A DNA stretch of 60,302 bases, the filler included, from Hausera hauseri (taxonomy: Eukaryota): assembly GCA_046269625.1 (NCBI GenBank). It is 9 parts of 9 records of this genome, joined end to end, with 100 filler letters (N's around TTAATTAATTAA, not from the genome) between each part and the next. Parts side by side here need not be neighbours in the genome. Positions count along the whole stretch, not along the records: positions 8,122 to 14,108 come from JBJURY010157867.1; 8 more parts are not named here. One strand, written 5' to 3'. Every line of letters starts with the position of its first letter. The first letter of the stretch is position 1. The position numbers and the translations under genes were made by a program. Shown piece after piece: positions 8,122 through 49,900 of this stretch. The notes beneath the pieces were generated by a model that was not told where the DNA came from, did no database searches, and worked only from the letters and a program-made list of their open reading frames with translations.

Positions 8122-8129
8122 GACTTCCA

Positions 8130-10980
8130 TGCCTAAGCAAACTCAAAACTGCAGTTCATACGTATATTGCACATATTCAATACACAGTCCTCAGAACTGT
8201 CATAATACTATGATGGGCTATTATGGATACAAATTCAATAGGATCCTCTATTATATTTGCCCAGGATGTGAGGCTGTATGTGATGAAGAATACATGCTGT
8301 TTTACGAAGATCATATTGCCCATTTGGCAGACTTCAAGTCAAAGTCAAAGAAGGTCATCTTTAAGGAGCAACAGCATTTTTCGGCAGCAAGGCACTATGC
8401 AGGACTAAAAGGCATAGCAGCAACAGCAGCAGCACATGTTTCATCAAAAAGCCAAAGACAGGGACCAGTTGATGCGACAGCATTAAAGAGAAAATTCCGC
8501 AGAATGTTACTGATGCAACTGGTCAAACAACCCTCCAAGACTTCCTCTTATACGCGAAGGACGAAACAGAGGGAAATCTTTAGGACAACATGGCTGAACT
8601 CATAGCTCTTAAGTTGAATATAAAACTGGAGGCTACGTACATCAATGTTGATGGCCAAGCATCCAGTAAGGCCTTCAAGACCAAAAACAGGTCAGTATTG
8701 GAAATCACCAACATAGAAGAATGGCTGCAAAAGGCGCATGAGAAGCTGATCCGTAAAGCCGGAGAGAGTCAGGATAAGAAGAGCGGATGGACTCTAGCAA
8801 GAGATTGCTTGTGTATGTTCACAAGTACTCTCCAATGCGGGAGAATTAATATATTCAGGTCTCTGATTGGATCGCTAATAAAAAAGTATATGTCACTGTC
8901 CATAACAACGACAATATGTGTTTCATGTATGCCATTCTATCCAAACTGGTAACGGATCAAAATCATGCTTCATGAGTTTGGCTATATAAGTATGTGCAGC
9001 ACAACTATGACTTCCAAGGTATCAAGTTCCCTCCATCCATAGATGAAGCTAAAAAATTTGGAAAAGTCAACAACATGTCCGTCAATATCTTGGGATTGGA
9101 TGAGGAGGAAAAATTTTATTCGCTGCAGATATTCGATGCTGAATTGGAAGATCGTAGGAATCTGCTCCTACTAGACGATGGAGAAAAGAAACATTATGTT
9201 TGGATCAAAGACTTTGAGCGGCTAGTAAGATCACAAATTACGAAACATCATGAACAAATAGAATACGTAAACGGTGCTTGTCCCATTTCAGCGGCGATGT
9301 AGCTGTATTGAATCTTGAAGAGCACAAGATGTACTGCAACAATAATTATTGTATCAGGTTAGAATTTCCCAAGGAGGAGTACATGGAATTTAAGGTCTTT
9401 GGGAAGAAGATCAAGGTCCCAATCGTTATCTATTGCAACTTTAAGGCTATTCTGCGTCAATTACAGAGTTGCGGTCATAATCCCAAACATAACAGCACAA
9501 CGGCATACCAATATCATGAGCTCTCATCATATTGCATGTATGCCAAATGACTGAACAGTGAACCATTTCTATTCAGTGGTTTAGGAACAGCAGCTCATTT
9601 TATGAAACGACTTGAAGATATGACTCATAGGATTGGAGATATGCTGCAGAAGCATAAGGACGACATGAGCATGACGAAGCAGCAAGAAGAAAAATGGCGC
9701 AAGGCAACAGCATGTTACTTTTGCTTCAAATCATTCACTAAGGATAATTATAAAGTCAGGGATCATTGCAATTTTACAGACACATATCAAGGTGCGGCAT
9801 GCAAAAAGTTCAATCTACGTTGCAAAACATGCACATATATGCCTGTAGTGTTCCATAATGTCAGGGGATATGATTCCCATTTCATTGTTCTGGAACTGGG
9901 CAGCATTGAAGGAAACATTGATGTGATCCCTAATAGTGAGGAAAAATACATGACATTTACGAAGCATGTTGGTAAAATCAGGCTTCACTTTGTAGACAGT
10001 TACCGTTTCATGTCGTCTTCACTTAACAGTTTAGTGAAGAAACTTCCTGCAGAATAACTCAAGGAGACGAAGCAGTTCTTCCCCACTACATTTAACCTCG
10101 TCAAAAGGAAAGACGTGTTTCCCTATAACTATGTAACATCATTGGAAACACTGGATAAGACCTCATTGCCGGACAAGAAGGACTTTTACAATATCCTCTC
10201 TGATTGCGATATCAGTGATATGTACTACCAGCATTCCCAGAACATCTGGCATGCATTCCAATGCCGGACAATAGGGGAATTCAGCGACATATACCTCAAG
10301 ACGGGCGTGCTAATGCGACGTATGTCTTTGAGAGTTTCAGGGATGTTACGATAAAGAGCGATGTATTGGATCCGGTTTATTTCTTTACGGCTCCAGGGAT
10401 GAGCTGGGCAGCTATGCTGAAATATAACGGTACTAGACTGCAGATCATAAAGGATTATCACATGATCCTCATGATCGAGAGGCATTAGAGGCGGAATATA
10501 CCAGGCCATCCACCGGTATAGCGAGGCGAACAACCAGTATATGGTCCAGTATGACCCATCCAAGGAATCCTCATATATATAATACCTGGATGCCAACAAC
10601 CTATATGGATGGGCAATGAGCGCCCCATTGTCATATGATAACTTCAAGTGGGTCGAGAATCCTGAAAACATCCCTATGCTGGACCTTGATCTCAGTGGAG
10701 ATACGCGATACATACTGGAGGTGGATATGGAATATCCGGCTTCTATCCACACAAGGCATCAACATCTGCCTTTCTTCCCTCAGAGCAAGCCTCCGCTTCA
10801 TGCAAAGCATAGAAAAATGCTCTGCCATCTGGATAGTAGGGAGATGTATATAGTTTACTACATAAATCTCTAGCAGGCGGTCGGGAATGGACTTCGAATT
10901 ACGAAGATCCATCGGGCCCTGCAGTTCAGCCTGTCAAACTGGCTGCAACCCGACATAGACCGTAACACGAAACTGCGGAT
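8130..10980 (+). pseudogene. Decayed protein-primed family B DNA polymerase with endonuclease VII-like insert (Polinton/Maverick-type), truncated after motif A
   Basis: KSGWTL; HYVWIKDFERL; CYFC...VRDHCNFTDTYQGAAC...NL; PVVFHNVRGYDSHF; FVDSYRFMSSSL; FPYNY; YLDANNLYGWAMS; YILEVDMEYP. Frameshifts and stops throughout; 5' boundary uncertain. Confidence 0.9.
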
Positions 10981-11089
10981 AAATGATGTTGTGCCTATTA
11001 AAATTTTTGTTTTGTCAAAGTCGGTCGTAGGTTTGAAGTCGTCTCTTACCTCATTAGTTCTACCTTGTCATTCGAAACCAACATGGTAC

Positions 11090-11760
11090 ATGGACTACCA
11101 ATGTTCAATCTCATGCTCTTTACTTTGGAACTAATGGCATTGATCTGAACAGGAAAATGGAGTAAAGCTAGTTGATCTAGTCTGAAACCTTCAATGTGTA
11201 ACCAGACTTTGTGATTCTGATAAAAGGTATGGATTTCATCCTATTTTTCCATATTGTCAGTATTAGTACTACCTGTGAATGCAAATACCAACAGTGACAC
11301 TTTACCAGCATTCACATCAACTTGAATTAACTGTTCTAATGACACGGGATCTATGCTTCCATCACTAGTTAATTCAAAATTATTCGGAACTAAAGAAATG
11401 CATTCTGGTTGCAACCCGAGATTTATTTTTAGATAATCAACGATATTTGAATCAACTGCACTGTTTAAATAAATCACCGGAAATTTTGAGCATAATGCAT
11501 TATAGCCTTCAGTCTGATATTTTGAATACCGATCGGCCAAAGCTACTTTATAAACGGCCAGAACTCCATCGTAGAGTTTGTCATGGAACAGTGTAGACGT
11601 GCAACGATATCGCCATATTTTCGAGATCCACTATCATTTTCTCAAAATTATCCATCACTTTTCCCATAACCGAATTTTTCATATCACATTTGAAATCAAT
11701 AAAATGAGGATCAATATGATGATTTTAGCCAATCGTTGAATGATGGCTTCTGACAGAAAC
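11090..11760 (-). pseudogene. PDXDC1: PDXDC1-like (pyridoxal-dependent decarboxylase domain protein) fragment with an in-frame stop
   Basis: WISKIWRY...FHD...ALADRYSKYQTEGYNALCSKFPVIYLNS...LGL...LEQLIQVD...TDNMEK*DEI...VWLHIEG parallels remembered PDXDC1 (GFNVLYNKKPVIYLS...WLHVEG). AG acceptor at 11631-11632; TAG at 11241-11243. Confidence 0.8.
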
Positions 11761-11999
11761 TTTCACCGACCTGACAGTAATTACCAATCATAGAATTATT
11801 TTCCATTAGACATTAATTATAGAAATTGATTTTAGTCGTCGTTCTTTTGAATTGAGAAATGAACGTATGTTAATGCATTTTATCGTGTAAAAAATTCTCA
11901 ATCAGCAAATTTAAGAATTTTATTTTCACTAATATTGAAAGTTAGGCCAAGATAATTGAATTGCGACATTTAAGCGACCGTGGTGGGGCAGATCATCGA

Positions 12000-13059
12000 T
12001 ATCAAAAATTATAAAAGTTCAGTATTATCCATATATCAAGTTACGCTGTTGGTGCACAAAAATTCATACGTTGACATTTTGATGCACCAACAAAGTCTGG
12101 TTAAGACTTGATTATTTTATTGATTTAAATGTCTAAGATACTCGATGGACGGTACCGAAACAATTTATATTTGCTACAATTCGCAGTCCACTACTGCTAC
12201 AATTTATATTTGCTACAACTTGGTTGATTAGGCCGTATCTTGTAGAAGTCAAATTTTATTTTGAATTCTCGATTCACAGGTATTTTACTACACGGATGTT
12301 GCACACCTGCACGAATGGAACAATATCCTATTTTCGGAGTTGGTCCTATTGCTGCCTTGAACACGATACTGATTTTCCTACTGACGGTTAGCTCCGTCCG
12401 AGTATTTACTTGAATACATTGTCTTTTCTTATTCACAGAGATTCTCTGGATATTTTCGTTTAGTAGTCTTATATCTGGGTCAGTGGATTGCAACATTTTG
12501 TTCAGTTTTACTCCATGATCCTTATTCCAAGCAGGAATGACTAGTTGAAACTGTGGTTTTGTTTCATACATTTTAGATAAGCTTGGTAGGTACAGACGAT
12601 AGGTTAGATTATAAGTATGTCCGAAATCTATGTCACAATATTTCGTACGTTCTTCTAACTCAAAGTCACAATTCTCTGTTTTTTTGTTATTACGTCATCT
12701 AAGACAATTAGGATCCTTCCAGAATTTCGGTGTGTTTTCCATGTTTTAAATCAAACGCATGTAAAGTTAGGAGAGTAGTAGTGGATCATTACTGTTTGTA
12801 ATAATCTTATACCTTCTTGTCTTTGGTTTTCTTCGACTGCTGATTTTCTTTCCGTTTTAATAACCTCCAATCTCGTTTCACTTTTCCGAACTCTGTAACT
12901 GTCGTACCACCAGTTAGCTTGTGTTCTTGGAATATAGGAGGCAATTAGCAATAATGCTAAAACTATTTGAACGTAAGATGTTGGTTTATTAATTATGGAA
13001 GACGTTTTTGTTTTCTTTTTATCTTGATGGGAGCTATATCGCAAATTGTAATGTCTTTC
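12000..13059 (-). pseudogene. Putative env-like extra ORF directly downstream of, and in frame with, the integrase C-terminus
   Basis: GPYEVIRT...HYNLRYSS...SYVQIVLALLLIASYIPRTQA/NWWY read without a stop; then frameshifted pieces with Cys and sequons NFT and NLT. Confidence 0.5.
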
Positions 13060-14108
13060 TGGCTTTATTTCTGTTTTAACAACTTTTTGAATCGATACTT
13101 CCTCTTCTTTACCATTTTTGTTAATGTATGCCGTAGCTGGTGTGGTTCGGATAACTTCATAAGGTCCTCGTCCGGTACGAGTAAGTTTTAATGAGGTGCT
13201 TTTCTTTGCGACTGGGTAATATCCATAGACCCAGTTTCCTTTTTCTAAATCGTTAGGTTTGGCCTTTTTATCGTATTGTTTCTTAAACTGTTCTTGATAC
13301 TAAAGAGTAAGTGTCTTAGCTATATCCCAACATTTTTGTAATCGCATTTGTAAGACTTCTGCGAAATTGGGTTCTAAATCTTCCGGATTTCCGTGATACG
13401 GAGTCATCACTAAGTCCGTAGGCAAAATCGCTTTACGTCCATACATCATAAAGAACGGTGTAAATCCTGTGGCGTGATGTGGAGTAGTATTGATAGCAAA
13501 TTGTGTTTCTTTTAAAAATTCATCCCAGTCCTTTTGATCCTTCGCTACTACGGTTGATAGGACACGTATAACTGTTGCATTCGTACGCTCGACCATCCCA
13601 TTGCACTGAGAGTGATATGCGGTAGTAGTTCGTCGTTCAAATTCAAAGATTTTAGAAATTTTGTCAAATAATTCGCTTGTAAAATTATTTCCTCAATCGG
13701 TTAGTATTTGATCGGGCGGTCCATATCTACAAATGATTTTCCTTATCACTGCGTCGTCTAGAGTTTCTGACTTTTGATCAATTAGTGCGATCAATTTCAC
13801 AAAGTGTGTGAAACGATCTACGAATGTCAAAATGTATTTATTATTTTTATGAGTCGTAGGTAAAGGTCCTATTATATCTATAGACATAGCCTGCATAGGT
13901 CTATCTGGTACGTCGATCGGTTTCAATTCTGCTACATAGTTTTTCACTTTTCTTTGTTTCGTTGCACAGACTTTGTAAGCGTCCACCCAGTTCTTCACGT
14001 CGATATAAACATTTGGCCAGTAGTACTTGTTCAATATCTTTTTAATGTTTTCTTCCATGACATATGTCCCGCTAGATGTGAATCATATTTAGCCATTAAT
14101 AGTTCCGT
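13060..14108 (-). mobile_element. Decayed Gypsy integrase (third family), cut by the contig end
   Basis: HLAGH...YYWP, IDIIGPLP, VDRFT, ILTD*G, YHSQCNGMVERTN, NTTPHHATGFTPF, GPY module. Confidence 0.92.
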
Positions 14109-27291: not shown

Positions 27292-27340
27292 AAGTTGACT
27301 GAAAATTTGTCACTGACAACATTCATAAAAATATGACAAT

Positions 27341-27500
27341 AACAATAACAGAAATTTTCATATGGGGTAATTCATTTAATCAATACAGAAAATTTAAATT
27401 TAAAAATGCAATATTTAACTGACTTTATAAATGCATTTTTAAATTTAAATTTTCTGTATTGATTAAATGATTTATCGCATCTACAAATTTTTGTTATTGT
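27341..27500. repeat. Intronic fold-back (inverted repeat)
   Basis: Perfect 39-bp arms at 27372-27410 and 27432-27470, with imperfect outward extension. Confidence 0.92.
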
Positions 27501-27524
27501 CTGTTATATGGTACATTATTTCAG

Positions 27525-30500
27525 AGGCACAGTCATCGGACCGACCTTCAATTTCAACGTACCAAAATTGAAATTCGGAAACGTATCTGTAGGTACATTT
27601 AATCGACATTTTGTTGTAAAACGATATAACAAAATTCTGAAACAGGATTTCCCACTACTCGAGAAATCGTCCTTCACAATACCTCCTTAGTGCCACTCAA
27701 ATACCGCCTAAGAGTTCCATCAGATGGCACCTTCAAACCTTTGTTAGCGGAAAATCTGCAAAGTGAAATGTCCCCTCGATCATTCTGTGAAGTTTACCAG
27801 CCGAAAGAATTCGAAATCCACCCAGCTGAAGACACAGTCGGGTCGTTGTCATCGAAAACGATAAACGTTACGTTAACATCGAATAGCGTACGTAAATACA
27901 ACACAGATATGATCATAGATGTAATCGGAGTGGGTGATGAAGTGGCCTCCATACCAATCACTGCTAGGTTTCCTGCCAATGAGTTGTTGAATTGATAACT
28001 CCTCATTTTAGTGCAATTGTACCAGACTTAGAATTGTCGTGTGACGTTTTGGATTTCAGTCGATGTTTTCTGCGGTACCCCTATCAGAAATTTGTGACAC
28101 TGTCCAATACTTCTGCACTCCCTGTTAGATATAAACTGCTTCCTCAGACGGACGATACTGATCTTATTAATTACAGCAGTGAAATGCCTACGGTGAATGA
28201 TTTTTCTTATTTTGTATTCGTCTTCAATGCATATCTGCTTCTGAAACTACCAATTACTAATGGATTGACTGTGTATATGTGTGCGTGTGTGTGAAATTTA
28301 AAATGTAGTTTCCATGTGAAATTATGAATTTGCATAATTGAATACAACAAATAAAAAATTGACATTTCACGTGTCAATAAATGTTCTATAAAATGATACA
28401 AGGCTAGAAGATATCAGGAAGAGAAAATGTCAAATTGAAGGAAGTGTCAAATTTTCATTTATTGACTTCAATTATGACAACTTTATAATTTCACATGAAA
28501 ATTATATTTTAAATTACACACACAAACAGACAGACAGACATACAGTTTACCCATTGGTAATTGGTAGCTTGATAATTGACTAACAAGTAAAAATTGATAG
28601 GGCGATATAGATTAACATGGCTAAATATTATTCGATTGTTTCAGGCCGTGGTAAACCCAAATTCCGAACTGGAATTACCAATACAGATTCAGGCCCACAG
28701 CATAGGAGAAATAACAACTGCGGTGAACGTGAAACTCTTCGGTTCAACGAAGGATGCTCTGGTAAACATGACAACCGCTGAATATTCGATTGTCCTCTTC
28801 TCTATTTAGATGGTGACTCTGAAATGTATCGGCGAAGGGCCGGTGGTGAACATTTCCCACGTATCTCTTGACTGGGGTACTATAAAGGTTCTGGAGGACA
28901 ATCAGCGAATAATTCGCCTAACGAATGAATCAGAAATTGAAGCGATATTTTCGGCAAATGTCGTGAGTTTCATGTTTATTCAATTGCAGACAAAACAATA
29001 TTTTCAGATGAAACACGAAACGATTTTTCGAACTGAGCCACAATCCGGCATTCTGCAGCGTCATGAGAGTTTAGACGTTCGTGTAATTGCAAATTTGAAT
29101 GACAGTATAAAATTCTCGGATGAACTCCATCTCATGATAGAAGAGAGTAAAACGAAGGTGGTACCATTGATTGCCGTTGGTCAAGGTACGACTATCACAT
29201 TCGATCCACAAATGCCGGCAATGTTGAACCTTGGTGCCCATTTCAGCAAGTCTCTGTTCCAGAAGATATTCCGGGTGACAAACCAGGGTAGACGTCATCA
29301 GCAATTAGTGTGGTCAAATGATGGGTACTCATTTACGAAAGCCATGCGTCAAGCCGGTTCCACAAAGGTGATATTTTAAGGTGATAGCTGTATGTTTGAT
29401 ACGAATTATTCAGCCCGGACCTGCAGCACCAATTCTTACCGTAGTCCCACACAGATTTGATCTGAGTCCGGGTGAGTCTGCAGAACTAACGATACAAGGC
29501 AGTGTTGATAAGTTAGATGAATGTTCGGCATAAATCCAACTCATAGCATGTTCAGACCACAAATTGTCCATGAGAAAATCGCATGCCATGCCATCATTGG
29601 TAGACAGGGTGGAAAAGAACTTATAAAACGAGTGGAACTGGAGATAAATTTCATATCGCCAGTGCTGGAATATTCTACTCGTCGACTTGAATTCAGATTG
29701 GATAAAGTAGTTGTACTGTAGAGAATACTTGTTGATTTGCTTTGTCGGGTAGAGCATCCACAATGAATTTGAAATTCTACAACAGACGTTCTCTTTGAGA
29801 AATGTTTCTGGGTTGCCTCTCAACAGTACCCTGTCAGTATATTATCCATTTTCTATTGTTGACCAGAATGGACAGCAAACGTCAAATTTGGTTTGAAATT
29901 TTCTTATCTTTAACAATATGTTCATTTAACGGATCAATAAATTCAAATTTAAAATTCATAAGTTATATTACTAAAATATTTACTTATTCAGCTATTTCCA
30001 TCAACTTTTCATAGGTCCTTAAATTGTTCCGTTTTACGGATATTTTGAATGGTTTTTCTTTCGCCTTGTTTGTGCATGAATTTCATTGGCTGCATGGGAT
30101 ATTTTCTTACCTATTGAGATTTGATAAGTTAAGATAATCATAAGATACATTGTTATAGAAACACAAACAAATTTCATGATACACTCGATTTTAGGGGCCT
30201 AAAATTTTTTGGATACTGAGAAATTTTATGAGAATATTTTTCATATACTAATGTATATTTATCGATATATAGAACATACTACTCAGTGAAGAAGACGAAA
30301 GCCTCATAACAGTTGAATTCGACCCTCTCTACAAGAAGGATACTCACAGCAGACGTACTGAAGATGCGCTGAAGGTGTCATTTTTGGAGCACCCGAATGT
30401 GGTTAGTACAATGTTGGAACTTGTAACTTTCACATCAAAACTATATTTTATGTATCACACACACACACACGCAATTGACTAATATTCATATTCAGGACGA

Positions 30501-33500
30501 AATTTGTCTAATCGGGGAGGTCAATTTCCCAAACGTAACATTCGATAGAACATTGGTCAATTTCGACTGCGTCGTAAACAATTCCGAAGTCAGTCAATTT
30601 GTCGTCATGACGAATAATTCACCACTCGAAGTTCGATTTTCGTGGAGTCTCGTTATTGGTGAACGGCCAAACATCATATTCCATCGCAGACGATTAGAAA
30701 CACCGGAAGTCGTATTGGAACCAATTCTAGACGCTACAGAAAAAGACGTCGACACAGAAAAGGAGTCGACGAATCCGATTGTCGTAGAAAAACTCAATTT
30801 GGACGATAGTCTTGATGAACAGAATTTCGATTTTTCTCTTAGCGATATGAAACAAAATCCTGCGGAATCGAGTTGGTCTGATATAGTAATAACGGGCGAT
30901 GAATTCGACATGAGTCGCAAACAATCTCAACCAATTGCAGTTGTGAAGAAACCACCAGTCAATGCAAAACTGAAAGAATTATTGAATACCGAATGTGACA
31001 TTGTACCACTGGGTGTTGAGGAAATATTCGATGTGAGACCACTTTTTGGTTCACTGCAGCCGGGGGAAATTGAGCAAGTTACCTTTACTTATTTCGGTCA
31101 TGCCGATGTTGAGGCTACTGTTACTGCCATTTGTGAAGTTGACGGTGGTCCAACTTATCGATTTGAACTTAATGGAGAGGCGTCTTCTGTTCTTTATGAG
31201 ATCAGTTCATTGGATTTTGACTTCAAACACGTCCCATATAATGAGGTTGTATTCCAGGATTTAGAAATTCGAAATACGGGAAAAGTCGGATTCGAATTTA
31301 CGTCGAAAATGGCATCGTCATCTTTACCAGAAAATCAATATCCAGTACAGATTCCCATTATGATACCTGTGTCAGGATACGTTTCTGCTGGGACCAGCAC
31401 ATCAGTGAAGGTGGGCTATTTGCCAGGAATACCGGGCAAATTCCAGGATTCGTGCAACATCCAGATCGCTCATTTCCAGATGCAAACAATCTCCCTTAAG
31501 GGATATGGAACGTTCCCTCGTTTAACTCTCGATTTGAAACGTGATGATGGACTATTCGATGATTTTGTGTCTCGACGATTTGATGGTGCTTTATCGGTCA
31601 GACAACTATTCGGTCAGGATATGCCGTTTCATGAGTTAGTTGCGCTGAAGAAAAAGGAAATTGAAAACGAAACCAATGCATCGGCAATGAACGATGAAGT
31701 GATGAATATTTTGGAAGACGAAGCAGTTCGTAATCAATACGTCAAATCAGAAGGGTCCAGCTTTGCGAGGGTGCTTTTAAACAAAAACTTTGATAGGTTT
31801 GTTATTGTTGTATTCTTTAATACGTGTTTATTGACATTATTTTGCACTTAATACGGCACGGTACTTCTTCACTATCCCTCCCATACGGAAATTACTTTTG
31901 CGGAAATTTCTTCCTGTTAATTAATGGATTATCTACTGATTTCTAACTCATCAACAAACAGACTTTGGCACTTGTTCAATTTTCCCCGGATAAAGTTTGT
32001 TTTCATATGGGGAAATTGAATAAGTTCCTAAATTTTAATGGCTGCTGAGGTGGTTCAAATGATACAATTAGGAAAAATTGCTTAGAATGAACTTCTTTCC
32101 CCATACTACGTGACAATTTACCCATTTTTATCAATCTGAAACATTCTGTCGTCATACCATTTCATAGAATATTTGTAGATGTGTATATATGTGTAAAAAA
32201 CGAACGACTAAACATTTATTATTGATAACCATTCAGACCATCTCTACCTCCATATCATCTGGATTTCGGTAATGTTGTACTGGGTGAGAGAGTCACCAAA
32301 GAAATTCGAACGAAGAACACTGGACCATTCCCTATTCATCTGAAGCTAATGAAGACATATTTGATGCAGACGGGATTTTCCATGGCTCTGAATTATGTCA
32401 AATGTTTCCCACCGGGAAAAACATTCGAGTTTGAGATAGATTTCGATCCTCGGGCAGCTAATCTCGAATTGGGTGTAGTCGAGACATTTCTTTTCCTCGA
32501 TGTAATTGATATGAATGTAATTGATTGTGTATGACGGATATATGCATTAGATCATGAACGGGCCTGTCGTACCTGTACGACTAACAGTCAACGTTACCAT
32601 GCCGGATTTGGTCAGCAGTTCGGATGTGATCGAGTTTGACAAGGTGAAAGTTGGACAAGCCAAATTGGTGACAATACAGTTACATAATCCTACTCCAGTT
32701 TGTGCAGAATGGAGTACGATGAGTTCGGAACCGGAATCGTCATCGCAACAACTGAAGCACAATAAACTCCTTAAGAAGAATAAATTGAAACGACCACAAG
32801 AACGGAAACCTTTAGTATTCGAATTTATCCCATCATCAGGTTCTGTGAAACCTGATCAACATGTCAATATTCAAGTTAAATTCATGCCCCTCGAAGGGAA
32901 GTCATACTCACAACGAGCTGTGCTATTGCTCAATAAGAGTAGTAAAAGATTAGTCATGAAATGTACCGGGTTGGGTCTGGAACCAATGCTCGAATTCAGA
33001 GAACAATTCATCCAATTCGGTCCAGTGTTACCGCATACTATTGGGTGTGAAAAATATATTACTGTACACAATCCATGTTTCTATCCCATCGAGTTTTACA
33101 GTTTGGAATTCGATAAAGTTTATTTGGATGATGAAGAGATATTACGTCACATCAATGGCTATGATACATATGGCAACATCTTGATGCCTCCACGAGCAGC
33201 AGGGGAAAAACTCCCACAGGAATTCATCGAGTATTATGAGGATTACTGCAAACGTAGAAGTGAAATTGAAACTGACAGTGGACAGAAGGATAAACATGGG
33301 GAAGATGTAATAACGAATATTAGTAAATTAATAAATTGACTCTACCGAATAGTTGTCTGAAATCGAGCAGGCCGATGTTAAGCGTAGTCAATCAGTCCAC
33401 AGACCATCAAAGTCAGCTACATCAATCTCAGATTCGGAATCAACAGCGCTGGATGATCTCGAACAGACTCCCGTTTCACAGGCAATTGCCCGATATCTTG

Positions 33501-36500
33501 GCATCGAATTAACTGCAGAAGGAAAGGCTGCTCGTCGAAATCGAGGCATAGCAATCGTCGTTATCGGCAGTCCAATATCTGGGAAATCAGGTTTCTAGGA
33601 CTATGTATCAGGGAGTGAATTACGAACTTCCTTCTTTCAGATACGGCCAGCATTTTGTCGGATAAATATTCGGCATGTTTGTTGACGATTGATGGTATCA
33701 TTTTGGATGCTGTAAGTTCGTCAAATACTTCCGCTGCGCAGAGGGCTAGAGCGGCATGTCTTGATGCTGCAAGGAGGAATGAAATATTCGAAATTGATGA
33801 ACCGGCTGAGAAAAAGGCACCCTTTGAAGGAAGTAAGTTTCGACTGGAGCGAATTTGAATTCTTTTATTATTTTTATCATTGATGGGGAAAACTCGATGA
33901 AAATAACTTTAATAAATGTTGGCACGTCTTGCACAAATAGTTGCCCGAATATGACTTTATATAGGAATTGCATCTGAAATATTGCGAATATTCGGTGATT
34001 TCAAATAGGATAATTACTTATGCCGTTCGAATTTCTGGATAAGAGTCGAAATAATTTTCATATTCGACTTTGTACCGAATTGTTAGTCGAAATGAAATGA
34101 CCGAATAATTGACTACTGTCCAATATTAATTTTGATTCAGGTACAGCAGCAGCAGCAGCAGCAGCAGCAACGAAACGTTAGTTATTTTTTTGTTATAATT
34201 GCCGTATGAAATGGCTTAATTGCATGGCTCGATTGTTTAACATGCATGAAACGTTTAAACCACTGTTCGACGTTTGATTCGGTGGCACTGAAAATTGTGA
34301 CACAGCCATAGCACATTTAAATGGACTTTCCAACAAGTGATTCGAATTGAGTACTGATCGAACTGTATTAATACTACGATGTAACGGATTCGCCTGTATT
34401 TATTTACAAATAAGAATTTAGTTCTGTGTATTTGAATGGATGATAGATTTTGACCACTTGCATCTATTGCCAACACCCTTTCATTACAGTGTGGTAACGA
34501 TCTTAATTTGTGTTGTGTAGGTAGCGTGGCTGCTAGTGCTGCACATGGACAGTCGCAGACAATCCACAACAGGAAGACAAGCAATGTATCTACTGCTGGT
34601 CGACACCCATCCAAACAATCGGGAACAAATAAGGATCACGGCACTGATAAAGCGGATCCCAATGCATATTTAGTATGATTGGTTGTTCGTATGATGTCTA
34701 ATCTGCACTCAGGTCGCGGCTAGTCCACCTCCATTGACTGGACCACCATCCACAAAATTAAATATATTCGAGACAAACAATGGGGAAAATATTGCATTGA
34801 TGAGTTGCGTACTGCAGGATGAAATTGTGATTCAGTTACTCAGTGAACGATTACTGTATAGTGATTGTCAGAAGGGTGTTGTATTCGATGGGCTCGATAG
34901 TTTATTTACCCAGAATCAGTCATCATCTGCTCAGTTGATTCTCCATGCTTTGAATAATCGACGTTTTCTCTATTTTGTAACATTGAAACGGGATTTTAAA
35001 ACAATAAAGGAAGAGGAAATAGAGGCAGAGGAACGTGAAAAGGCCCTAAAGGCCAAAGAAGAAGAGGATCATTTTCTATGGATTCAAGAAATGACAGAAG
35101 AGGAATATGATGCTCTGGATGATGAGACCAAATATCAGATTGAAGAGAAACGTTTAAGAGCACGACGAGAAAAGAAGAAAAAAGAGTTGGAAGAAGAAGA
35201 AAGACAACGAGTATTGAAAGAAGAACAAGAAGCTGAGTTACAAAGACAGAAAGAGTAATAAACAATTATGGTTGATTTTCATTCGTCAAAATTATGTTTA
35301 GAATGAATAAGAAAGGAGGGAAAAAGTTGCAACCCGGCGATGATAAACTGAAACCAAAAGGCGGAAAAGATACATCGATGGGGCGACCGACGAGGGAAAA
35401 TACGATGTTACACAAGGATAATTCTGCGGGAGCTGCAGATAAACCTCATCTAACCGATCGACCAGAGTCTCACATGACAGAAATGTCAGTTGAGGCTGAG
35501 GAGAAGTAAGTTTCATTTTATTGCAGTGATTTGGACTTTGTACGTACAATGCAGGACACTGATCCTATACGTCCTTGACCAAGGATAATATAGAATAATG
35601 CAAACCTTAAGTAACCTTGGCTGACCCTGACCTTATGTGACCTTGACCTTGTCTAGTCTTGACATGGGATGGCATTAACCTAGGATGACCTTGATGTTTA
35701 CGACCTTGATCGTGGATGACCCTGACCTTATGTGACCTTGACCTTGTCTAGTCTTGACATGGGATGGCATTAACCTAGGATGACTTTGATGTTTACGACC
35801 TTGATCGTGGATGATCTTGACCTTAGGTGATCTTGACCTTGGCTGACCTCGACATGGGATGGCATTAACCTAGGATGATCTTGATGTTTACGACATTGAT
35901 CGCGGATGAGCTTGACCTCGGATGGTATTGATCTCTAAAGATCTTTATGTTAGATGAAACTAACCTTCATGACCTTGACCTTAAATCACTTTAACATTCA
36001 ATGACTCAGATATTAAATGACATTGGCCTTATATTGATTTTATTATGGGATAACTTTATTTTTGTAATCACTACAGAAAGAAGAAACAGCGTAGTTCGGA
36101 CAAAAAGTCTGTTGGGAAAATTGACGAAAACTCCAAAGACAACACAGACCTTGTCGAAGAAGTTGTTAAAGATCCAAAAAAGGAGCAAGAATGGCTACTT
36201 AATCAGAGGTACGAATACGAATATGTCAACTATTTTTATTTATTCGAATTTAGATTCAAAACATTTGATGTCGAATACAAGTCAATCAGTGAAATCCTAT
36301 CCCTATGGGACCGGGCACATCCGCCGATGAAGCAGAGCCACGCCATAGCCGAGGAAAATAATAGTGAGGACAACGTACTGGCCACAAAACGAACAGGACG
36401 AAATACAGTGATCAAACGTGGAAAAGATCATTTGAATACTCATAATCAACCATCACTCCCTTCTCACAGTCCGAATCAGGACGATCCTGCCGACACGGCG

Positions 36501-39500
36501 ACTGAGGCTGCTGCCAGTAGTGAGGAAGCACCAGGCATCCCAAATATTGTCATAGACGTATCCAAAAAATGCCAAGCTGACAGGGACGCCATTGTTCATC
36601 AGACTCTGGAAAAGGAGCTGCCATTACCAAATGATATTCTTGAAGGACTGGGATTGGGGCCTCGTGGTCCACCTATTCCCCCACCTGCAGTGTTTAGTAT
36701 TGTGCAATACCCGGTAAAACGACGTGCACCGAATATGCCCGAAATGTTCGGCGAGTTGGGTCATTATAATTTTCTGGGAACATTGGAGGATAAGGAGGAT
36801 GAGAAAATTCTTAAGGAAACCCAGGACAAAGAGGAAGAAAGATATACAGAAAGGGTTAGTTAGTCGGGTGAAGTTATTGATATAATATCTCACCGAATTT
36901 TCATTCAGATTAAAGATGACGTGATATCTCAAATTTCGAGTATCAAAACGAGTCGATCGAAAAAACTCAGCACGGCAAGGGATCCAATCGTGGCACAAAA
37001 ATCAACGAATAAAAAAGCCAGTAGCACAAGACGTGGATCCCAGTCTGCAGCATCAGTTGGGAGTGCCCCAACACCGATATCCGATGATTGCAATAAGTAA
37101 GGGTTTTTATTGACCATTTTAGACTGTTTTCATATTCACAATCAGCATAACAGATTGTGTGTTCCTGAAAAAGGCTGGCAACTAAATACCCGGATATCTA
37201 TAACGATAATTGTTGCACACAATCAAATGTATGAATAACAGAAATTGTCTAGTCAGTCATTATGACATTGATATTACATTTATACAATCAATAACTCATT
37301 ATATGAATTTATATCATATAATATAAATTATAATGGATGATATTCCTGTGATAGTAGAAACGGGATCTTTTCTAAATAGCTGTCTAAAAGTTCCCAGTGA
37401 ATTCCCCACAGAGATTCAACTGTCTGATTGTGAGCACCACTTAATGGGTCAATAAAGTTGGTTGAAGTTGGCATGCCTACATACACCTTCAAATACCCAT
37501 TGAGGGGATAATATTTGTCTTACATTATTTTTACGACATGCAAACTGACTTTCATCAATTAAAACATTAAAAATCAATCAATATATAGGGGACAAATTGT
37601 AGAAACGTTACGTCATTCCATATGGCATATTTTGATTCATTATATTTCAGTGACAACTTCACGATGTTCAATCAGTAAGTTTATCTACTCATCCCGTTGT
37701 TGCTGTGGCTAATTAACAATGCCATCTATAACATATCTTCGCTAACCCCTGTTCTTCCAGATCTCAATCCTATCGTTGGGTCATTCTACCGGAATCCGAA
37801 ATAAACCTTCGACTTCGATTTCGATCTGATGAACTCGGTCAATACGACCAGACGTTTAATTTCGAAATAGTCGATACTCGTAGAAAATACCAGATATTCT
37901 GTCGAGGTATTTGTGCTTTCCCGACTATAAGTAAGGAGCCGCGAATTGTTTTCCCAAATCGAAAACGAAACAAGGAGCTCAACGAGATTGTTCATAAGAA
38001 GTTCATCCTCGATGATGACCTGTTTGATTTCGGTCCTTTGTTGATTCATAAGGATAAACAGAGGTCGGTTTGATTTGGTTGAAAATGTGATTTCGAATGG
38101 TTTGTTTGTATAGGATCTTGGAGAAGAAATTCGTCGAGAATTACGAAGAACTCACAATAAAAAATTCCTCACCTCTTCCGGCAGAAGTAAACTTCAGTTT
38201 CCTACACGATGCCAAATGCGAACGATTCGCATTGGATCCACCGACGATGACCCTTCAATCTGATGAGACGAAGAAACTGACAATTTGGGCATTTCCGAGG
38301 GCAGTTCAGAAATTTGAAGATGCGCTCGTCTGTTGCATTAAAGAGAATCCAGAACCAGTGATTTTTAAAATTATTTGCTTCGGAGTCGCTCCCGTTTTGG
38401 AACTTGATAGAAAAATCCTTCATTTCGATCGAGTTCTGCTGCACAGGAAAGATATGAAAATCCTTTATTTACGAAATAGTACCACATTGCCATTATTCTG
38501 GCAAATTACGGGACTTGAGACACTGGGTGATGAATTCTCCTTCTCCAACGACAGTGGAGTGATCGAACCGTTGACCGAGTTCAAATTGAATGCCTATTTC
38601 CGTTCAATGAAACCGTACAAACCGAATCAGAAGAAGAACATTCGAATTGAGGTGTACGATGTGGACAAAATAGCAGGAGTTCTGCAAACGGAAACTATTC
38701 AAGTTTTGGCTGAGGCTTATGACGTAGCATTGGATATGAGTTTTCCTAAAGGTGCATCGAATGGAATTGATCTGGGAGTCATCAAAGTGGAGGAGGAGGC
38801 TAAACAACAGATTACGTTGAAGAACAGGGGGCCATATGAAATAAAATACAGATTTGATATTGACTCGACTACAACTAAATACAATTTGCAGAAGTTATTT
38901 ACAATAACTCCAAATCAGGGTTCGTTGTCTCCAGGAGAAAAGGCGGTTCAAGTTGTGGTACATTTTTATGTCAGCTGTATAAAATATTTTGTCTGATTTG
39001 TGTATGTGTGTGTGTGTGTGTATTGATTTATAATTTAGACAATAAGTAACGATGGATATTGGATTGGTGCGTAATTTTGTGCGGCTTTTTTAAATTCAAT
39101 TTTTTTATTCATCCGATCAATAATGTATTCTAATTGGGTATTTAGAACTTCTTCCCAACTTTTTAAACTTTTCGGTGCCTCGGCGCTAAAAATCGTCCGG
39201 TCGTTTGACGGGGATTTTCGTGAATAAGTTGGTTCATTTTTGTCGACTTGACATTTCATTTAAACGATCTAAAAATAGACATAAATAAGTGAAAAAAAAC
39301 TTTTTATTTTATTTGCACAATTTTGAATTAAGAAAAAAAAACGCACGAAATTATGCACCAACCCAATAGTATACTTCCCTGTCATGGCGAAAGGAAATGG
39401 AGTTCGTGTCATATATTGATAGAGGTAAGCAAGTCCAATGTATAGATCTGTATTCAACTCTGTAATACGTCGCAGAGAGTCTCAATAACAAACCCTTTTG

Positions 39501-40054
39501 CCATGGCAGGACAGTATAATTATCGATCACATTGAATGTATGGTATTATTTGACGATTTGCCAATTTTCAGATAACATTTTCTGCAAAGGATGAAGTATT
39601 CATCAAAGATGATCCTATTCTCAAATGTCACGTCATTGAACCATCTGTAACTGAAACCGGCGAAACAATCGCCATTATTCCCATAAAAATATCAGCGAAA
39701 TGTGTGTATAGCAAGTAAGACATTTAGTATTAATTCAAAATGAATTTGAAATGGATTTAAATCAATGGGATATTGATTGTTGTCAAATTTTATTATACCA
39801 TGGATGATATAGAGTTATCTGTTAAGATTTGTCATTACACCAAAAGCTGACATCAATTTTGGGTCCGCAGCGGTACACACGAAGAAAACCCGACCATTTA
39901 TAATCGAAAATATTGGTGACTTTGATTTGAAATTTTCCATATCAAGAGCTCAAAAAGCCACTGTCCAGTCGACTACAGCAGGAACTGTGATCAAAGCCAC
40001 TAAAAAAGACGTCCAGAAAGATACCGGTGCAGCACAAACTGTGAAGTCGAAACA
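27525..40054 (+). CDS. HYDIN: Hydrocephalus-inducing protein homolog (ciliary central pair), multi-exon internal portion; both ends lie outside the contig
   Basis: Spliced reading gives GTVIGPTFNFNVPKLKFGNVS-GFP...NTSLVP..Y.LRVPSDG, LIGEVNFPN, EEIFDVRPLFGSLQPGE, GGPTY, NPCFYPIEFYSLEFDKVYLDDE, adenylate-kinase-like RGIAIVVIGSPISGK and SDCQKGVVFDGLDSLF, GLGLGPRGPPIPPPAVFSIVQYP, AEAYDVALDMSFPKG; GT-AG introns restore frame where I checked. Confidence 0.97.
28244..28570. repeat. Intronic fold-back element with about 125-bp imperfect arms
   Basis: ctaccaattactaatgg...catgtgaaattat...aattgaca mirrored by tgtcaaatt...ataatttcacatg...ccattggtaattggtag. Confidence 0.9.
35622..35906. repeat. Intronic tandem repeat, 3 x 95 bp, built from TGACCT-like subunits
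   Basis: Units start at 35622, 35717 and 35812; degenerate flanks extend to about 35570-35985. Confidence 0.93.
39059..39366. mobile_element. Mariner-type MITE in a HYDIN intron
   Basis: TIRs ttggattggtgcgtaattttgtgcg / cgcacgaaattatgcaccaacccaa with TA on both sides; resembles mariner TIRs of the Hsmar1/MADE1 type. Confidence 0.85.
39370..39518. mobile_element. Second Tc1/mariner-like MITE, adjacent to the first
   Basis: tatacttccctgtcatggcgaaagg ... ccttttgccatggcaggacagtata, an inverted pair bounded by TA. Confidence 0.72.
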
Positions 40055-40378
40055 GTAAGTGAAAATCTATTGATTGCATAATGCTTCGATTATGTAACAG
40101 CAGTAAAAATGTTCGGTTTTTTACATCAGTTCGAGTTTTGCGAATATTGTCTTATCAATCATTGCGGTAGATCATATAAATGTTTTGATCACAGATTTTT
40201 ACGAGTGATTTTGTTCCTCGTTCATCATGATATCAGTGATTGTGTGTGTGTGTTTGCTTCAGGAATTGATGAGGTAGTTAGTGAAAATAGACTCAAAAAC
40301 ACTGCCATTATACTGAAATTTCTCGCCGAAATTAGTCGAAATACTGTTGTATAAATATACTTCACAAAAGACTAGTTA

Positions 40379-46839: not shown

Positions 46840-46927
46840 GTGGACCATTTTTTTCAATTTCCACCACAGGTTTCCATTGGGTTGAGATATGAACTATTTG
46901 CAGGCCATGACATTGGACATGTAGGTC

Positions 46928-49900
46928 AAGATGGCGGCGCCGGTGTTTGGCTTGGCCACCACTGCCTCCTACTCACGCTTTTTCTTTGTAATTTTACGCT
47001 TTTTCTTCCTGATTTTAACTCAAACACTTAGTCCTACCTTTTTTCCTTCGCCTCTCCTGGACATCTCCGTTGCTGCAGTTTCTCAGCTCCGCTACGATCG
47101 CCAGTCTCTGCTGATGATCAGAAAATCCATGGAGCTCCCTTTCTCCTCCTGGCAGGACTACCACCGCACCTTTCCCCCTCCACCGTTTCACTACCACTCG
47201 CTCCCGGACCTGCGTCTTTTCTCCCTGCCTAATCGACAAGGAAATCCCGGGAGAAAACACAAAAAAAGAGGTCGCCGTGCGGGAGTGTCGTCACAACGGA
47301 GATGCCCCAATGGACCCGGCTGGGCTCCTCACGGGAACCGGCCTCGACGCCTTCGTCTGCTGACCGGGGGCCGAGCGCATGAGGGGGCTCCAGGCACGAA
47401 CCACACTCGGCCCTTCTACACACCGGCTAAATCCTCCAGCTGCCGAGAACGAAACCTTATTCAAATCCCCCTGGTTCCTCCTCAGGTCCCAACCAGCTCT
47501 CCGCCGCTCCGGATGTTTCTTCTAAATGCTAGATCCATCTCCAACAAGGCTCTTCTGCTAAACGATCTTTTCCACTCCAAAGATCTTGACTTTATGTTCC
47601 TGGTTGAAACTTGGCAGAAGAAAGACGAGCATTTCCACCTAAAGGAACTCTGCTCCCCCGGCGACGCGGTGATCGCGACGCCTCGGCTGGATCGGCGCGG
47701 TGGAGGACTAGCAGTCGTACACCGGGACTTTTTCTCGTGCTGGCTGGTAAGCACACGGACCTTTTTCTCTTTTGAATCGCAGACTATTAAGCTCGGATCT
47801 TCTCCCCCTCTTTACTGTATCCTGATTTATCGCCCTCCTGGACCAGCTACAAACTTTCTTAAAGATTTTGCAGATTTTTTGTCCTCCGTCATAAAATTGG
47901 ACCGCCTTTTATTGCTTGGTGACTTTAACTTTCACTTTGATGATGCAGACTGCAGCGAGGCCCGCGATTTCACCTCCATTCTGGACTGTTTTAACTTTAT
48001 TCAACATGTTTCAGGCCCCACTCACCAGCGTGGCCACATGTTGGACTTGGTTTTTTCCCTGGGCCTGAATGTAGAGAATGTGTGTGTTGAGGACTTGCAA
48101 ATTAGCGACCATTTTGGTGTGCTCTTTGATGTAAATTCTGTCCTGGAGCCCCCTCCCCCCAAAGAGCAGATCCAGAAAAGGATTGTTAAACAGGACGCCA
48201 TTACCACCTTTTCAGCCTCTTTTGACCCATCTGTTTTGACTGATATAAATCAACCGGACGATTTTATCCATGTATTAGACAATCATTGCTCAACTGTTTT
48301 TAATGCCTGTACTGTAATAACCACTAAAACCTCTGCTGTTAAAACCACTACACCCTGGATAAATGAGACCATCCGCTCTGCTAGACGCAACTGTAGGCAG
48401 GCAGAACGTCTGTGGAAGTCATCCCGCTTAGAGGTGCACAGGCTTCACCTTAAAGAGCTCAGATCATCACTGCAGTCCATGATAAAAGATGCCAGGTCCC
48501 AATACTTTGCCCAGTTGGTCTCCCGCTTCAAGAAAAATCCCGGAGCATTATTCGGCACCATTGACACTCTGGTTTCCCCGGTCGTCCCCCCGCCTGCCAC
48601 CCTCTCTCTTGCCAGTCCTAATAACTTTCAAACTCACTTTGTTAACAAAATTGAGAACATCCGGCGCAGCATCTTAAATCAGCCTCCTCAGGCCCCATTT
48701 CACTTAACCACCTGCCCTGAGGTTGGTCTTAGTCCGTCCTGGACTTCGTTTGATCTGGAAACTGTTAACTCTCTAGAAACAATAATCCAAAAAATGAAAC
48801 CTTCTGGCTCCCCTCTCGACATCCTACCCCCCAGATTCTTAAAAGCTGTTTACGGCGCAGTGGGACCCACACTTGCGGACCTGCTAAACCTCTCTCTTGC
48901 TTCTGGGTGTGTCCCAGGATCCTTTAAAAAAGCAGTCGTGGAACCCATACTAAAAAAGCAGTCCTTAAACCCATCCGACCTGAATAACTACCGGCCCATC
49001 TCAAAGTTACCATTCTTGTCTAAGGTCTTGGAGAAAATAGTTTCAGCACAACTCATAGCTTACTTGGATGCCAACAACCTTCACGACCACTTCCAATCTG
49101 GCTTCCGCAGATCACACTCCACAGAAACCGCTCTTCTTCGAGTATCTAACGATCTACTAATGTCTGCTGATAAAGGAATGTACTCTGTCCTGCTCTTACT
49201 GGACCTCTCCTCAGCCTTTGATACCGTCGATCACACTATTCTGATTCAAAACCTAAGTGACATAGGCATATCTGGGATTGTGCTAGACTGGTTTAAATCA
49301 TACCTCTCAGACCGCTCCTTCTCAGTCTTATTAGGCCAATCCTTCTCTGACTCCGCCAAACTCACCTGCGGAGTTCCTCAGGGTTCCATTCTGGGCCCAA
49401 TTCTATTCCTGCTCTACATCCGTCCGCTGTCTCAGATCCTGAAAAACTTCACCGACATCTCCTACCACTTCTATGCAGACGACTTGCAGTTATACTGCTC
49501 CTTTAATGACTCCACCACACATAAGCTAACGTCCCTCAAAAACTGTGTCACCAGAGTTAATCAGTGGCTGTCTGACAACCTGCTGCTCCTTAACCTCGAC
49601 AAGACAGAGACCCTGATCCTGGCCCCAGAACATAAAATCCCCAAAATAAAAGAACACCTCGGCTCCTTGAGTTCAACTGTCCAGCCATATGTGCGCAACC
49701 TGGGAGTAAATCTTGACTCAGATCTGTCTCTAGACAAACACATAAAAAACCTAGTTTCTTCAAGCAACTATCAGCTTCGTAACATTTCTAAACTTCGGCC
49801 CATACTCTCCACTTCAGACTTGGAATTGGTCATCCACGCATTCATCTCAAACCGCATCGACTACTGCAATAGCTTGTTTACTTGTCTGAACCAGAAACAG

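Follow-up and report, generated by a model that had tools for sequence, protein, structure and literature searches.

A predicted FN3 membrane protein at the end of Pol in a gB-bearing Ty3/gypsy element of Hausera hauseri

The copy in the window

The window, the whole stretch of DNA analysed, comprises 60,302 nucleotides of Hausera hauseri joined from nine parts, and the copy that bears the motifs described here lies on the minus strand of the part at 8122–14108 (G000:C157867). The zinc-binding end and the start of the core of its integrase, at 13696–14082 (−), are identified by Pfam (rve, E 5.4e-08; Integrase_H2C2, E 3.4e-05), the upstream side being cut by the contig end. The integrase is also broken, by stops at 13695 and 13302; between these stops the remaining core is found in translation at 13303–13692 (−), with 85–87% DNA identity to sister copies. 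The C-terminal part of the integrase follows at 13039–13299 (−), its frame and motifs the same as in the sisters, and contains the GPY module (GPYEV, 13167–13153) and the HYNLR tail (13053–13039). Both motifs fall inside an open frame that runs in translation as a single reading frame from 13299 to 12754 (−) and continues past HYNLR into a predicted internal signal peptide at 12913–13038 (−). This is recognised by its sequence pattern, a basic run KKKTKT (13020–13003) followed by a hydrophobic core, VQIVLALLLIASYI (12972–12931), and a predicted cleavage site after TQA (TQA/NWWY, 12924–12904), all of which the preliminary description of the locus had placed correctly in one frame.

The sequon NFT (12768–12760, −) lies in the same open frame, which ends at a premature stop (12753–12751). 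Beyond a one-base frameshift near 12681, the next frame contains the Cys-rich pieces ENCDFELEER (12676–12647), NLTY, KRQCIQV, GYCSI and HPCSK (12298–12284), all on the minus strand. Alignment to unbroken sisters, together with a structural model of a sister, assigns the stretch at 12585–12912 (−) to a charged leader and a first FN3 domain, with approximate inner limits, and that at 12218–12584 (−) to a linker helix and most of a second FN3 domain. The broken, Cys-rich and sequon-bearing coding sequence reported after the cleavage site is therefore present, but at ∼700 nt it is shorter than the 900 nt first given, ending at 12218. The matches of the sister copies to the window copy all end at 12218–12220, and the copy, already noted to be truncated, is cut there by an unrelated repeat outside the element (11988–12217, −; 43 genome matches, most to 12179–11988 only). 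This repeat is ∼190 bp long, with a short partial duplication before it. The window copy is a dead, truncated member of a large Ty3/gypsy family; the third FN3 domain, the stalk, the transmembrane helix, the leaky-stop signal and the RING ORF described below are absent from it and are seen in sisters only.

The window has other features as well. Within the repeat region at 10987–12217, a piece at 11244–11630 (−) resembles a PLP-dependent decarboxylase, with PDB matches to aromatic amino acid decarboxylases at E 0.1–0.75; we take it to be PDXDC1-like, and it is likely a captured host mRNA fragment behind an LTR-like head. A second copy of this repeat and decarboxylase piece is found on G000:C553005 (93%). 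Broken ORFs at 8584–10985 (+) look, by eye, like the protein-primed type B DNA polymerase of a Maverick/Polinton-like element, and on G000:C553005 a similar piece, at 81%, also adjoins this repeat, but turned the other way round. Exons of a large host gene, presumably HYDIN-like from their translations, occupy 27292–40378, and another part of the window has an open stretch of 1126 codons at 46925–50302 (+).

The integrase junction in the family

Searches of the genome returned 1566 candidates at the DNA level, 40 of them scored, and 3112 at the protein level with the C-terminal part as query, where all 142 scored candidates match at 50–100% identity; both tallies are lower bounds and not copy numbers. 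All copies seen are partial or broken. Among 30 distinct copies that span the junction between integrase and signal peptide, 24 have it in frame (19 stop-free, 5 with a stop) and 6 out of frame. An integrase end is found at most 900 nt upstream of the first domain in every one of the 39 copies with enough flank (600 nt), including all 22 that were fetched without integrase in the query. Since the junction is in frame in 24/30 copies and the integrase lies upstream in 39/39, the fusion is not due to chance. The sisters do not end after HYNLR but continue into a conserved ORF, nor is this a host gene joined to the element in one copy only, its position being fixed in 39/39 copies. The signal-peptide pattern is repeated in about 34 distinct copy variants and in a distant relative outside the genome, P0004.

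In the natural copy L104, a 1192-codon open frame comprises RT, RNase H, integrase, signal, ectodomain and transmembrane helix, and the same contig also carries a gB-type glycoprotein, the protease and the RING ORF, all in the same frame. Pfam finds RVP, RVT_1, RT_RNaseH, Integrase_H2C2 and rve in that order on L104, and the order protease–RT–RNase H–integrase is that of a Ty3/gypsy element. One contig, L117, carries two different family members head to head, each with an FN3 gene and a RING ORF.

Predicted topology and fold of the post-integrase protein

Beyond the point where the window copy breaks off, the sister ORFs go on to encode a third domain and, after it, a stalk, a hydrophobic helix and a short basic tail. 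A predicted C-terminal transmembrane helix, as sought in the sisters, is present in 3/3 copies, with a 19-residue hydropathy of 3.0–3.2; on the same scale the signal core, which is short, reaches 1.3–1.5, signal and single anchor being read from hydropathy and sequence pattern. No internal stretch of the ectodomain exceeds 0.9 on this scale, and a furin-type R-x-K/R-R site is found in none of 12 natural pieces.

An AlphaFold2 model of 333 residues of the natural copy L106, made with 59 natural rows, has a mean pLDDT of 82.8 and consists of three β-sandwiches and a disordered Ser/Thr-rich linker (37% Ser/Thr), which lies between domains 2 and 3. The pTM is only 0.54, so that the packing of the domains is left undefined by the model. 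The best Foldseek matches in the PDB are contactin FN1-3 (E 6e-10), fibronectin, neogenin, gp130 and Tie2, and those in BFVD are phage and giant-virus FN3/Ig proteins. In a wide PDB search, domain 3 matches an FN3 domain of Tie2 (VIA Z 9.4, rmsd 3.2, 85 residues) and domain 1 one of NCAM2 (VIA Z 7.8, rmsd 3.0, 94 residues); domain 2 matched FN3 only inside multi-domain alignments. Differences in domain packing keep the whole-chain TM-scores low (about 0.2), and the FN3 assignment covers the domain fold only. Pfam fn3 is weak, matching 8/60 pieces with a best E of 0.026 and none at the curated cut-off. Other Pfam matches on these pieces were rejected as scattered (AJAP1_PANP_C in 4/60, best E 6e-05), as was, as chance, the single match of a PDB sequence profile search (E 1.2). 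The post-integrase ORF is predicted to encode three FN3 domains in a type I membrane topology.

The best fold matches, which include contactin, NCAM, DCC/neogenin, Dscam and RPTPs, would suit a cell–cell adhesion protein that keeps the expressing cell in contact with a stem cell or germ cell, allowing gB to transfer the element between them, and the Ser/Thr-rich linker would suit it too. Such matches, at 8–12% identity, nevertheless reflect how often FN3 arrays have been solved, and we consider adhesion unlikely.

Few relatives were found outside the genome. A HMMER search of 1.84 billion representatives gave two, P0004 and P0005. P0004 (479 aa, 35% identity) keeps the signal, all three domains and the anchor, but a separate Met, immediately ahead of the signal, opens the protein, so that fusion to Pol may not be general. 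The contig that encodes P0005 is 16,242 bases long, as is that of a RING protein, P0006, and the two are probably one and the same. No homologue of P0001 was found among 591 candidates from 5.8 billion proteins of similar length, nor, as weak evidence, among 5861 candidates when the alignment was compared with longer proteins.

Selection and domain exchange

Among natural copies the FN3 ORF has dN/dS of 0.13–0.61 in 54/54 usable pairs, with a median of about 0.3, compared with 0.06–0.17 for the integrase (5 pairs) and 0.06–0.18 for the RING ORF (9 pairs). The pieces had been selected for lacking stops, and many of the dS values lie close to saturation; the pairs span subfamilies, with dS near or above 1. 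One of 55 FN3 pairs was excluded for having fewer than 80 codons, one integrase and six RING-ORF pairs were saturated, and two integrase references and one for the RING ORF were dropped as out of frame. The FN3 ORF is under purifying selection, the value below 1 that the preliminary description had looked for being found throughout.

These values bear on whether the ORF is a piece of a captured host gene, carried passively. The fold is host-like, and a likely captured host mRNA piece does adjoin the window copy. Against this, dN/dS stays below 1 in every pair, across subfamilies with dS near or above 1; the position is fixed in 39/39 copies, and protein homologue searches found no host parent gene. 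The fixed link to the integrase also excludes dN/dS values drawn from copies of a host gene. A passenger is therefore very improbable.

Similarity between copies differs from domain to domain. L106 and L104 are only 20% alike in domain 1, against 73% in domain 2 and 81% in domain 3, whereas L104 and L107 are 74%, 35% and 75% alike over domains 1, 2 and 3. Domain 1 occurs in at least four types, mutually 20–37% alike, combined with differing domain 2 and 3 types. FN3 domains have been exchanged between copies, giving mosaics; some mosaics could be assembly chimeras, and L107 and L108 are single contigs.

The gB-type glycoprotein and the layout of the element

A gB-type class III glycoprotein (PF24664) lies directly upstream of the protease, in L104 on the same contig as the FN3 gene. 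PF24664 is found in four copies, all above the curated cut-off (E 2.1e-44 in L104, and 4.2e-29, 7.4e-15 and 2.5e-13), and the gB piece has its own internal signal-like stretch. The glycoprotein directly precedes the protease in 18 copies, with a gag-like region further 5′. Breaks between gB and protease are scattered over these 18 copies with no shared stop, which indicates that the frame was originally continuous. A programmed stop at this point, raised by the finding of only 1/22 open junctions, was rejected on the same ground. Overlapping natural copies together give one frame that encodes gB, protease, RT, RNase H, integrase, signal peptide, ectodomain, transmembrane helix and tail.

Upstream of gB, L124 and L126 have degenerate CCHC-like motifs, and Pfam found no family in one gag piece and two spacer pieces. 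Between gag and gB, L124, L126 and L127 have a helical-looking spacer of more than 1000 codons. At the other end, a purine tract followed by TGTTG is found at the end of the RING ORF on five distinct contigs (six rows), the last codons of that ORF overlapping the purine tract and the first bases of the putative LTR. An LTR-like match (72% over 334 nt) links the 3′ region of L021 with the 5′ end of L126, and a primer-site-like word, TGGCG, comes next. These LTR-like ends are seen on separate contigs, none of which spans both, and over overlapping contigs the element sums to roughly 16–17 kb. It fits the GAG-ENV-POL layout of gB-type errantiviruses, in which the env gene, here a gB fusogen, stands between gag and pol.

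The preliminary description had proposed an enveloped LTR lineage with Pol fused to an env-like ORF. The lineage does bear an envelope gene and the fusion is in frame; it is the reading of the post-integrase ORF as the Env fusogen that fails, because the family encodes a gB-type glycoprotein in a known GAG-ENV-POL layout. A signal, a Cys-rich ectodomain with sequons, an anchor and selection are indeed Env-like, and might have marked a new kind of fusogen. Yet a gB-type fusogen is already present, the ORF is modelled as three FN3 sandwiches, its next best hydrophobic stretch is not strong (0.9), and the R-x-K/R-R site is missing from 12/12 pieces. No fusogen is named among the matches listed in the PDB, BFVD and wide PDB structure searches with the FN3 model; this alone does not exclude one, because the lists are full of FN3 proteins, and it is the positive FN3 match that is the argument. 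The fold prediction already largely refutes a fusogen, and the chance that the ORF is one appears minimal.

The stop of the FN3 gene and the RING ORF

TGA closes the FN3 gene in 45 of 46 distinct copies, and the hexamer CARYYA comes next in 41 of the 46; the variable position is a Y (29 CAACTA, 12 CAATTA). Beginning 12 nt beyond the stop is a stem-loop in which 10/18 pairs show changes on both sides. In the alignment of the 46 stop regions, from which L055 was left out because its 3′ part is unrelated, 95% of cells are paired, compared with 36–59% in slid controls, and 0/500 shuffles reach this level; many of the changes separate two subfamilies, so the covariation represents few events. The folding z-score is below −2 in 24/46 copies, as against 1/43, 0/42, 2/43 and 4/41 for neighbouring windows.

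An ORF of ∼800 codons lies 3′ of this UGA, in frame with the FN3 gene. It stands between the predicted anchor and the PPT/LTR, so that the anchor is not, as had been foreseen, the last feature before the PPT/LTR. In L021 (3662–6103) and its sisters the ORF is made up of an AlkB-like part, a middle region and a RING finger. The RING finger, at the C-terminus, is matched by Pfam zf-RING_2 (E 3.4e-06), with its Cys pattern intact in 8 pieces. The N-terminal domain matches Ofd2 (Z 10.2, rmsd 2.9, 134 aligned) and ALKBH6 (Z 9.4); its pLDDT is 61–87, in a model with a mean of 47. By this modelling it is an AlkB-like double-stranded β-helix fold. Of the iron triad HxD/E...H, no shared HxD/E is found among 25 copies of the domain, which share a single conserved His. 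HMMER gave one relative of the RING ORF, P0006, among 1.84 billion representatives.

Behind the hairpin is a pyrimidine tract (82%), with YAG in 43/45 copies and GTRAGT 4 nt later in 34/45. This acceptor-like YAG and donor-like GTRAGT, both conserved, fall in columns 100–112 of alignment A4, ∼100 nt after the FN3 stop, and the Val codon ends only in A or G in 35/35 copies. Three-base periodicity is absent from the 32 codons that follow the stop. They are open in 31/45 copies, compared with 12/45 and 0/45 for the other two frames; coding controls are open more often, in 37/43, 37/42, 33/42 and 31/40 (78–88%). The splice-acceptor pattern behind the hairpin suggests that the RING ORF may be made separately by splicing, and this route and read-through can coexist. 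A leaky stop context, a 3′ structure and an in-frame ORF are all present in the sequence at the FN3 stop, and we judge that UGA–CARYYA with the stem-loop probably acts as a read-through site, although most of the FN3 product would still terminate there.

Such a signal could mean that the FN3 protein mimics a receptor on the host-cell surface, acting as a decoy for a host signal, blocking superinfection or, once extended by read-through, serving as a membrane RING ligase that removes host surface proteins. The UGA in 45/46 copies, CARYYA in 41/46, the covarying stem-loop and the in-frame RING ORF speak for this, as do the cytokine receptors among the fold matches and the apoptosis and ubiquitin domains carried by Burro elements (PMC6431247). 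Weighing on the other side, the splice-site pattern means that the RING ORF may come from spliced RNA alone, the codons after the stop are aperiodic and less often open than coding controls, and the majority of the product would terminate at the stop regardless. We regard a receptor mimic as possible, with the balance of probability against it.

A candidate attachment protein

The reading we favour is that the FN3 protein is a second membrane protein with an attachment role beside gB, gB likely being the protein that fuses; on sequence grounds we give it a probability of about one half. It is favoured because the FN3 protein would be made together with a fusogen and on the same side of the membrane, has a higher rate of evolution than Pol and is most variable in its outermost part.

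The polyprotein would thread the ER membrane twice: the internal gB signal would start the first passage, and the signal that follows the integrase the second. After the gB anchor the chain would return to the cytosol with Pol; a cut by signal peptidase would then free a type I FN3 glycoprotein into the lumen, leaving Pol cytosolic, and both glycoproteins could reach the budding membrane. Exchange of the outer domains might bring a change of receptor or an escape from recognition by the host. Some ribosomes, a minority, would continue past the UGA–CARYYA and stem-loop and so extend the tail, on the cytosolic side, by the AlkB-like fold and the RING finger; this form would be a rarer, receptor-like ubiquitin ligase.

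Two-protein entry is familiar from herpesviruses, where gD acts with gB, and from paramyxoviruses, where an attachment protein acts with F; membrane RING ligases include ZNRF3/RNF43 and the herpesviral MARCH proteins. The FN3 protein and gB resemble the former pairs of receptor-binder and fusogen, and the order ectodomain–helix–cytosolic RING can be likened to the latter, in each case by analogy only and not by any demonstrated kinship of sequence or fold. Several points count against attachment. Among other class III fusogens, rhabdovirus G and baculovirus GP64 need no partner. The short signal core, the separate Met of P0004, the low pTM and the chance that some mosaics are chimeric weigh on the same side. 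FN3 folds are generic, and the cytokine receptors gp130, IFNAR and IL-22R among the structural matches fit a decoy or host-modulating role equally. The putative leaky-stop link to a RING finger points to the host-cell membrane and not to the particle. On the other hand, herpes gB needs gD, gH and gL, and the entry of gB-bearing errantiviruses is described as unexplained (PMC13524379).

The full scheme that the sequence suggests, in which gB and an FN3 attachment protein with swapped cassettes form a two-protein entry apparatus encoded in one polyprotein, a leaky stop converting a fraction into a RING ubiquitin ligase, is appreciably less probable than the attachment role by itself, and is offered tentatively.

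Comparison with known elements and viruses

GAG-ENV-POL errantiviruses with an HSV/gB-type Env have been described from flatworms, nematodes and bryozoans (Chary and Hayashi, eLife, PMC13524379). The element here shares with them the Ty3/gypsy Pol order and the gB-type fusogen between gag and pol, and its gB pieces resemble, by eye only, six Schmidtea gB sequences in supplementary file 2 of that paper. Enveloped lineages of this Gag-Env-Pol type have been described before (PMC13524379, PMC6431247). The available text of PMC13524379, which places other ORF arrangements outside its survey, does not use the words fibronectin, RING, accessory, readthrough, in-frame or fused. Those errantiviruses could carry an FN3 gene unnoticed, because the supplements covered here give gB pieces and coordinates and not Pol C-termini.

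Burro, or GYPSM1, comprises giant gypsy-like planarian elements of more than 30 kb with BIR, MATH, BCL2-like and ankyrin parts (PMC6431247). Like Burro, the present element has accessory ORFs, ubiquitin-related domains and a single long polyprotein in which env follows gag and precedes pol in the same frame; its long spacer between gag and gB resembles the long ORF1 of Burro, and it has a protease–RT stretch where Burro has a dUTPase-like domain (PMC6431247). Unlike Burro it is about half as long, at 16–17 kb, and three pieces of its gag–env region have no Pfam matches. The section of the review devoted to Burro names no FN3 or second membrane protein (PMC6431247). Bdelloid rotifer LTR elements carry extra ORFs, among them small membrane proteins, which in the passages considered replace env, whereas the FN3 protein accompanies a gB env; the available text on these elements does not mention FN3 or RING (PMC5408684). 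An AlkB domain is reported in orchid Ty3/gypsy elements (PMC9289625); the AlkB-like fold here is without a conserved HxD/E motif.

CARYYA of tobamoviruses and the 3′ stem-loops of alphaviruses and benyviruses are tested stimulators of read-through, CARYYA giving ∼15% in a mammalian reporter, similarly with UGA and UAG (PMC4132726, PMC3159437). The signal here is like these viral leaky stops in its UGA, its CARYYA hexamer and its stem-loop after a 12-nt spacer, which is also 12 nt in Sindbis. Unlike them, it is a putative signal and stands behind a membrane protein gene in a retrotransposon. In the plant element SIRE1, CARYYA read-through is reported to lead into an env-like ORF. A literature search for CARYYA read-through in a retrotransposon returned nothing, and one for an errantivirus attachment protein had no errantivirus paper among the matches listed. 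No description of a gypsy integrase that runs into an FN3 membrane protein, in an element that also has a gB env, was found in the literature searched; Repbase, the original Burro paper and the deposited sequences of PMC13524379 lie outside that search and could hold one. The type of lineage is already known, then, and the FN3 gene at the end of Pol beside gB is apparently new, in that we found no earlier description.

Annotation by gag, env and pol misses a predicted surface protein at the end of Pol that is under selection. For a retrotransposon, the analysis also adds a putative leaky-stop signal, supported by covariation, through which a RING finger would be joined to a membrane protein. 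The route by which gB-bearing elements enter cells is unexplained, since herpes gB needs partners (PMC13524379), and the FN3 protein is a candidate partner, of a kind that these elements had seemed to lack, whose natural outer-domain variants would allow a direct comparison of binding. If the attachment reading is true, an LTR retrotransposon would have a two-protein entry like that of herpes- and paramyxoviruses.
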